DNA of 64,000 nucleotides from Escherichia coli O127:H6 str. E2348/69 (lineage in GTDB: Bacteria > Pseudomonadota > Gammaproteobacteria > Enterobacterales > Enterobacteriaceae). The stretch is from assembly GCF_000026545.1 (NCBI RefSeq), contig NC_011601.1. One strand, written 5' to 3'. The notes under the pieces were generated by a model, which did no database searches, was not told the DNA's origin, and saw only the letters and a list, made by a program, of their open reading frames with translations. The first letter of the stretch is position 1; each line of letters opens with the position of its first letter. Shown one piece after another: positions 58,137 to 58,554 of this stretch. The position numbers were made by a program, and so were the translations under genes.

Positions 58137-58409
58137 TCATCTTGCTGTCAGTTGTTTGGATTTCCGGTAGCCTGCCGCGTAAAGAGCTACGTTCGGAAGA
58201 CAAGTTGAGCCTTCATATTTTCTGGTCAACGTTGTCAGTGTTATTACTTCTGCTCTCATTGCTGGTTTGCGCTTGCATTGCAAGACCACTCGAGAGGGGG
58301 TTGGTCTGTGTAGCTTGTCGGAGCTAATCGCCTCCTGACTTTGCAGGTTTGCGCGACGAGCTCTACGACGAGAAGCTGAGGTGCCTTTAAATTCTGTTTT
58401 TCTGGACAT
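58137..58409 (-). CDS. N: N-type transcription antiterminator
   Basis: 90-aa product from internal ATG after RBS gggaggaa: MSRKTEFKGTSASRRRARRANLQSQEA... with N-terminal arginine-rich motif; nutL boxA/boxB upstream. Confidence 0.7.
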   Translation of the reverse strand: MSRKTEFKGTSASRRRARRANLQSQEAISSDKLHRPTPSRVVLQCKRKPAMRAEVITLTTLTRKYEGSTCLPNVALYAAGYRKSKQLTAR

Positions 58410-58506
58410 AGATTCCTCCCGAATAAACTTTGGTGATGCAATCTCGAAGCTCCTCCTGAGACGGTTGCTTCGGCATTGCATCCCACAGCTCATGTGGTTG
58501 GGTGAT

Positions 58507-58554
58507 CTGGCTTTTCAGCCACGTAGTCGAGAGTTCGACGTTGTTTAAAGAGCC
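58507..58554 (-). promoter_or_regulatory. nutL (boxA plus boxB hairpin)
   Basis: Minus-strand boxA ggctctttaaacaac and boxB hairpin ctggct-gaaa-agccag about 100 nt upstream of N. Confidence 0.65.

Follow-up and report, generated by a model that had tools for sequence, protein, structure and literature searches.

A probable VT2-Sakai-type N/nut antitermination module in a lambdoid prophage of Escherichia coli E2348/69

Layout of the prophage early region

The window analysed here is a 64,000-nt stretch of Escherichia coli O127:H6 str. E2348/69 (contig NC_011601.1), and contains the early region of a prophage that adjoins torS (region 48690..52590 on the minus strand; torS is frameshifted in RefSeq), with an integrase gene and, next to it, an excisionase gene. 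The window stops within the nin region of this prophage, so that a Q-type late antiterminator would lie outside it.

The gene N stands first after a pL-like promoter and the site nutL (Table 1), and the genes on the left side further comprise an ORF of unassigned role, a DUF2528/Ea10-like gene, kil, a Rad52-family recombinase and an SSB gene, while cII on the right is accompanied by O- and P-like replication genes. We place the start of the pL transcript at about 58593, at the conserved transcript start GTCAGCAGGACGC; the start motif (G/A)TCAGCAGGACGC is common to the window, lambda, P22 and H-19B. nutL lies ~40 nt downstream of this inferred start, nutR starts 11 nt past the cro stop codon, and the two sites are divergent, facing outward from the cI/cro immunity region. 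This placement of N and of the nut sites is canonical. Each operon has a terminator beyond its nut site, an intrinsic one on the left and the tR1 region on the right, and the nutR/tR1 region of H-19B has been used experimentally as a Rho-dependent terminator (PMC3526286).

Between cI and pL, in the position of lambda rexAB, is a BRO-N family gene with a G+C-rich terminator of its own; in VT2-Sakai this place is taken by unrelated small ORFs.

Table 1 Features of the N/nut region and neighbouring genes, in window positions
Feature	Position	Strand	Description
Integrase	51517..52590	-	excisionase gene next to it
Candidate tL1	57484..57505	-	intrinsic terminator downstream of N and one ORF in the leftward operon; 8-bp stem with 5 G-C pairs, then a T run
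N	58137..58409	-	90-aa antitermination protein; PF25694 and phrog_271 matches
N-leader hairpin	58423..58493	-	long, irregular; after nutL boxB and before the N ribosome-binding site (Shine-Dalgarno)
nutL	58507..58554	-	whole site
nutL boxB	58508..58521	-	TGGCT-GAAA-AGCCA; 5-bp stem, GNRA tetraloop
nutL TACG	58522..58525	-	UACG in RNA; after the spacer hairpin
nutL spacer hairpin	58526..58539	-	GTCGA-ACTC-TCGAC
nutL boxA	58540..58554	-	GGCTCTTTAAACAAC as DNA; GGCUCUUUAAACAAC as transcribed
pL-like promoter	58600..58628	-	TTGACC-17-TACTAT; homologous to the VT2-Sakai 'putative major leftward promoter' and operators
BRO-N gene terminator	58822..58839	-	G+C-rich
BRO-N family gene	58848..59690	-	280 aa; phrog_8036
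LexA/cI-type repressor	59771..60427 or ..60466	-	from ORF and domain scan
cro-like gene	60541..60756	+	HTH_3 domain; first gene of the pR operon; placed as VT2-Sakai cro
nutR	60767..60812	+	whole site
nutR boxA	60767..60782	+	CGCTCTTTGTAACAAC as DNA; CGCUCUUUGUAACAAC as transcribed
nutR spacer hairpin	60783..60794	+	GGAC-ATTC-GTCC
nutR TACG	60795..60798	+	UACG in RNA; after the spacer hairpin
nutR boxB	60799..60812	+	TCGCT-GAAA-AGCGA
tR1-region hairpin	60842..60859	+	between nutR and cII; identical in H-19B and VT2-Sakai
cII	60898..61194	+	

The N protein

The translation of the N ORF begins MSRKTEFKGTSASRRRARRANLQ, and its 90-aa product matches the Pfam family PF25694 (N_peptide, the P22 gp24 family) along its entire length, with E=1e-31 and 109.8 bits against a gathering threshold of 27.9 bits, residues 1-90 aligning to profile positions 5-100. 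This family is titled "Transcriptional antitermination N peptide", its curated members include P22 gp24 and H-19B N, and with the same model we obtained 6e-45 for P22 gp24 (the best score among the proteins tested), 1.6e-15 for H-19B N and 1.7e-19 for epsilon34 N. A further match is to phrog_271, 'anti-termination protein N-like'. Lambda N matches PF11438 (lambda N36) only, at 1.5e-26, and the window N protein has no match to PF11438. The description of this protein as a non-lambda N, made in an earlier sequence-only reading of the window, is consequently correct at the family level, and its homology is to N proteins and not to an unrelated family. No NCBIfam model matches the window N, H-19B N, P22 gp24 or lambda N, and a PDB sequence search with the window N returned no match, the solved N peptides being too short or too divergent. 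N proteins are disordered when free.

The alignment to known N proteins that the sequence-only reading had proposed reveals homology with the P22 and H-19B/HK97 types, and a C-terminus shared with HK629 N, which has a phi21-type ARM (arginine-rich motif). The window N is 98.9% identical to the N proteins of VT2-Sakai, the Stx1 converting phage, Stx2 II, phage 1717 and the PA series, and about 42% identical to those of the H-19B/HK97/933W type; among the best 80 of at least 503 relatives in IMG/VR, at least 13 contigs encode an N that is 100% identical. At the N-terminus, the pattern MxRxTxFxG-ARM is common to the relatives, and the arginine-rich motif noticed earlier is present at residues about 9-24 (GTSASRRRARRANLQS; GTSASRRRARRANLQ at 9-23). 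At the C-terminus, the motif CLPNVALYAAGYRKSKQLTAR is nearly invariant in the N alignment, the PF25694 motif LP.VA[LI][YF]AAG[YH]RK....TAR is present in invariant alignment columns, and the last 24 aa are common to the N proteins of H-19B, P22 and HK629. Between these ends, ~37 central residues of H-19B N are missing from the window N. Positional identity of the ARM is 8/20 to lambda, 9/20 to the phi21 type and 6/20 to P22, a pattern too diffuse for us to adopt the proposal that this ARM is specifically lambda-like.

The mechanical ORF list extends the N ORF to an upstream ATG at 58493, and in the Stx1-phage record AP005153 N is given a length of 114 aa (345 nt); together these raise the alternative that the real product is a longer protein of 118 aa, in which case the 'leader' would be coding. 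We regard this 118-aa reading as unlikely, and strongly so, given that GGAGG stands 5 nt upstream of the ATG at 58409, that the Pfam profile aligns from residue 1 and, with all homologues, begins at MSRKT/MTRRT, and that the N starts of H-19B, epsilon34 and POCJ13 are aligned with this position, all of which favour the 90-aa start. Moreover, N is annotated as 273 nt in AP000422 and in many other records, and the upstream extension would overlap a strongly structured leader hairpin.

This N-leader hairpin has an MFE of -39.4 kcal/mol (z -4.2), a value equalled by 0/200 shuffles. epsilon34 and H-19B have the same architecture in the corresponding place; there the inner-stem sequence differs but the outer CUUUGG/CCAAAG stem is conserved. 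The hairpin resembles the structure in the lambda N leader that is sensitive to RNase III and, by analogy with lambda, may act as a site of RNase III cleavage or translational control. In the RefSeq annotation of E2348/69, the N gene is recorded as 'hypothetical protein' WP_000088206.1 (58137..58409; 7138..7410 in locus L210), and a 'frameshifted' pseudo-CDS at about 58387..58609 (7388..7610 in L210) spans the N leader, nutL and pL; this pseudo-CDS is probably an annotation artefact.

Anatomy of the nut sites

Both nut sites are built in the order boxA, spacer hairpin, UACG and boxB. Every boxA and boxB element that the sequence-only reading had placed in nutL and nutR is present there, and the common boxB core with its GAAA-type loop is likewise borne out; both boxB hairpins have a 5-bp stem and a U-A closing pair. 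Beyond that reading, boxA and boxB are separated by a spacer hairpin, and the GAAA loop is a true tetraloop of 4 nt (GNRA). The boxA of nutL includes GCUCUUUA, the 8-nt NusB-NusE core consensus as defined in PMC3177189, and that of nutR has 7/8 of these positions.

When folded in isolation, both boxB candidates form stable hairpins, at -7.1 kcal/mol (z -3.6) for nutL and -5.9 kcal/mol (z -2.4) for nutR. In folds of 61-nt segments, the z-scores are only about -1.7 and two free hairpins are not the MFE; in the MFE of each nut site, boxA (GCUCUUU) is instead base-paired to the 3' half of boxB (GAAAAGC), with the spacer hairpin enclosed between them. It is possible that this modelled pairing represents an alternative structure, which would hide both elements. 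Alternative NUT RNA structures in H-19B were reportedly discussed by Neely and Friedman (2000).

These weak segment z-scores might be taken to suggest that the paired motifs are not nut sites at all, but chance similarities, or generic Rho-loading or terminator hairpins that flank the immunity region, as might the plus-strand image of the nutL spacer hairpin, which was flagged as terminator-like. We consider the probability of such an explanation to be negligible, since the composite pattern GCTCTTT..AAC..GCTGAAAAGC is present at exactly two places in the 64-kb window and in zero of 100 dinucleotide-preserving shuffles, the sites remain strictly conserved in ~80 loci whose immunity regions are diverse, and the boxB loop type follows the ARM type without exception (see below). 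That the two motifs are nut sites is the reading we retain.

A third copy of the 10-mer GCTGAAAAGC exists at 63382..63391 on the plus strand, inside the nin-region ORF 63184..63510, and could form UUGCU-GAAA-AGCGA. We rejected it as an additional nut site, given that boxA, spacer hairpin and TACG are all missing there, that it is coding, and that 0.26 such copies are expected by chance; it is probably coincidental. A search of 57500..61500 against Rfam (evalue mode) recovered neither a nut nor a boxB family; its single match was a sub-threshold one to RpsF_leader (E=0.27), which we take as chance.

Conservation of N with its nut sites

To describe how the module varies among close relatives, we used a conservation set of 80 IMG/VR loci in which N is 97-100% identical (the best 80 of at least 503). 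The nutL boxB is GGCT-GAAA-AGCC in 79/80 of these loci, and the nutR boxB is CGCT-GAAA-AGCG in 74 of the 80. The nutL boxA is invariant in this set, nutL varying only within its spacer-hairpin loop, and the nutR boxA is kept in 74 relatives. Across the same 80 loci, the distance between nutR and nutL ranges from 1254 to 2970 bp with ~40 different values, and the ends of cro are not the same, indicating that N, nutL and nutR stay together across many immunity cassettes.

The spacer hairpin is also retained over a wider range of phages. In nutR, the spacer GGAC-AUUC-GUCC and its UACG are identical in H-19B, VT2-Sakai, epsilon34, POCJ13 and the window. In nutL, the stem is GUCGA..UCGAC in the window, GAUUC..GAAUC in H-19B and epsilon34, and GGUGA..UCACC in a further IMG/VR locus (L124), all of them perfectly paired and each followed by UACG. 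The position directly 5' of UACG is thus held by at least 4 distinct, fully compensated stems.

ARM type and boxB type change together

For a broader comparison, we assembled 120 loci that share the 17-nt nutR spacer hairpin plus TACGT, with any boxB. N was found in 83/120 of them and was long enough to classify in 82; the loci counted are related sequences, such that the counts below do not represent independent events. Among the 44 loci with an H-19B-type ARM (RRRERLKAKALANGVLAR), the nutR boxB has a GACAA loop in 44/44 (2 with a U-G wobble closing pair), and the nutL boxB is CGCT-GACAA-AGCG in 41. The VT2-Sakai-type ARM is found at 28 loci, all 28 with GAAA in nutR, and with GAAA (25) or GCAA (3) in nutL. 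An epsilon34-type ARM (RRRERRAALQ), carried on a 120-aa H-19B-like body, occurs at 9 loci, with GAAA in 9 nutR and 9 nutL sites, so that the nutR loop is GAAA in 37/37 loci with either the VT2-Sakai or the epsilon34 ARM type. One locus has an L124-type ARM (RRREARKHLQ), with GCAA in both nutR and nutL.

The sequence-only reading held that N is matched to its sites, and across related phages ARM type indeed tracks boxB loop type. The ARM and boxB swap jointly on a common scaffold, as predicted for a cognate peptide-RNA pair, and the covariation supports, at the level of sequence comparison, a cognate specificity in which ARM type is matched to boxB type. epsilon34 and HK629 represent separate recombinant backgrounds.

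Several individual loci deserve mention in their own right. L124, from IMG/VR, has a fourth ARM type (RRREARKHLQALP) on an N of 100 aa, and the nutL spacer stem GGUGA..UCACC given above. Salmonella phage 103203_sal5 (L007) has an H-19B-type N and an atypical nutL boxB, CUC-CGUCAAC-GAG (upstream of 4501), and its nutR has the GACAA loop with U-G wobble closing, the same pattern being seen in 2 IMG/VR loci. The epsilon34-type loci (L005, L006 and 9 from IMG/VR) have a GAAA boxB and, at both nutL and nutR, no recognisable boxA consensus (e.g. CACCACTTCCAACAAC, GGTGAACATACAAC), whereas the VT2-Sakai type is near consensus, and the presence of boxA is therefore uncoupled from boxB and ARM class.

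Comparison with known systems

The closest known system is that of VT2-Sakai (AP000422; also AP005153, Stx2 II, 1717, the PA series and YYZ-2008), the N of which differs from the window N at 1/90 residues (S11 versus A11). Its nutR is identical to that of the window through boxA, spacer hairpin and boxB, in its nutL the spacer-hairpin loop has a 1-nt indel relative to the window, and its pL and operator region is ~95% identical. The flanking genes differ, in that the window has the BRO-N gene in the cI-pL interval, a phrog_1636 ORF after N, and a Rad52/SSB recombination module compared with Exo/Bet/Gam in VT2-Sakai.

The N protein and nut sites of the H-19B/HK97/933W type have been studied experimentally (PMC3526286, PMC4499122). 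H-19B-type N belongs to the same Pfam family as the window N and its C-terminal 21 residues are identical; the site architecture is also the same, with a nutR spacer hairpin, UACG and tR1 region identical to those of the window. However, H-19B N is 127 aa long, as opposed to 90 aa, and includes the ~37 extra central residues, its ARM is that of its own type compared with RRRARRANLQ in the window, its boxB is a P22-like GACAA pentaloop where the window has a GAAA tetraloop at both sites, and its nutL is without a consensus boxA. P22 shares with the window the C-terminal motif of N (gp24), the pL leader (CAGCAGGACGCTGG.AGCCAAACGGAA) and the consensus boxA GCTCTTTAAC, but differs in its GACAA pentaloop, in having no spacer hairpin or UACG, and in its ARM (TRRHERRRKLAIERD). 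HK629 N (L211, 553..975) is 90 aa like the window N, has a C-terminal 24 aa nearly identical to it, and follows the same pL leader and boxA, yet it differs in its phi21-type ARM (GTAKSRYKARRAELIAERR) and its boxB (CTCTCAACCTAACCGTTGAGA), which has a long stem and a large loop.

The likeness to lambda is one of mechanism class, of a U-A-closed boxB with a GNRA-type fold, and of an ARM core RRRxRRA..Q.Q. Lambda N recognises a GNRNA pentaloop folded as a GNRA tetraloop, for which the U-A closing pair is needed, the lambda boxB loops GAAAA/GAAGA adopting the GNRA fold with one base extruded (PMC12027372). In contrast, the loop in the window is a true 4-nt tetraloop with none extruded, there is no detectable whole-protein homology between lambda N and the window N, their C-termini differ, and the position of lambda W18 is held by Glu in the window N, with no Trp. 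As a hypothesis, a U-A-closed true GNRA tetraloop would be compatible with lambda-style recognition, the ARM being only 8/20 identical to that of lambda.

The same likeness could be read differently. HK022 Nun is likewise a small ARM protein encoded at this genomic position, and an ARM with the RRRxRRA..Q pattern of lambda N (8/20 positions), together with a lambda-like GNRA loop, might lead one to propose a Nun-like exclusion or termination factor, the ARM of which would bind the boxB of another phage and arrest its transcription. We find this very improbable, as cognate boxB sites sit in both early operons of the phage itself, Pfam assigns the protein to the N family, and its last 24 aa are nearly the same as in H-19B N, for which antitermination has been demonstrated (PMC3526286). 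Judged against Nun as described, an exclusion protein without cognate nut sites in its own genome and with a distinct C-terminal arrest domain, the case in the window differs, since the phage has its own nutL and nutR and the C-terminus of its N equals that of H-19B and P22 N. Antitermination by N is thus the reading carried forward here.

Proposed function and status of the module

Given the PF25694 match, the canonical placement and the near-identity to VT2-Sakai N, we conclude with high confidence that this lambdoid prophage of E. coli E2348/69 carries a VT2-Sakai-type N/nut processive antitermination module, in agreement with the antitermination module with a non-lambda N first proposed for the window. 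In kind it is an ordinary lambda-like early-gene switch, consisting of a protein, N, and two RNA target sites.

By extension from lambda, P22 and H-19B, RNA binding, use of Nus factors and terminator read-through would be expected to proceed as follows. Upon induction, transcripts from pL and pR would carry nutL and nutR as RNA, and the N-terminal ARM of the 90-aa N would bind the boxB hairpin with its U-A-closed GAAA tetraloop. Host NusB/NusE would be recruited by boxA, and the conserved C-terminal segment LPNVALYAAGYRKSKQLTAR would contact RNA polymerase, along with NusA and NusG. The polymerase modified in this way may then pass the intrinsic terminator on the left and the Rho-dependent tR1 after nutR, so that the recombination, cIII and kil genes would be expressed from the left operon, and cII, O, P and the nin genes from the right one.

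A more speculative proposal concerns the specificity of the pair. An ARM of the form RRR[AE]RRA.LQ together with a true GNRA boxB (U-A-closed GAAA/GCAA) may constitute a separate, orthogonal N-boxB class, which would not cross-react with the GACAA class (H-19B, P22), would use lambda-like recognition without Trp stacking, and in which the spacer hairpin and UACG would perhaps replace the NusA contact made by the extruded base in lambda. We put this forward tentatively, our confidence in it falling slightly short of even. A literature search found no experimental characterisation of the pairing of a VT2-Sakai/epsilon34-type ARM with a GNRA-tetraloop boxB, and no functional study of VT2-Sakai-type N/nut or of this allele.

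The module itself is already known, being nearly the same as that of VT2-Sakai, which has been in GenBank for ~25 years (since about 2000). AP000422 annotates N (273 nt) and "putative N-utilization leftward/rightward" sites at homologous positions, also marks the "putative major leftward promoter" (pL) and OL1-3 at homologous positions, and lists a "putative rho dependent terminator for pR transcript" (tR1) on the right side. The existence of this nearly identical annotated module means that the feature is a known one and that the sequence-only reading was right. As a discovery it accordingly matters little, being of a textbook kind with an allele annotated in Stx phages since about 2000. It does, however, make the RefSeq annotation of E2348/69 correctable, with respect to an N labelled 'hypothetical protein', a pseudo-CDS over nutL and pL, and the lack of an NCBIfam model for N. 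The comparison across ARM types, in addition, provides a clean natural case of an RNA-binding peptide and its hairpin swapping jointly on a constant scaffold, and a natural boxB with a true GNRA tetraloop could, should its specificity be confirmed, provide a useful pair for orthogonal tethering.
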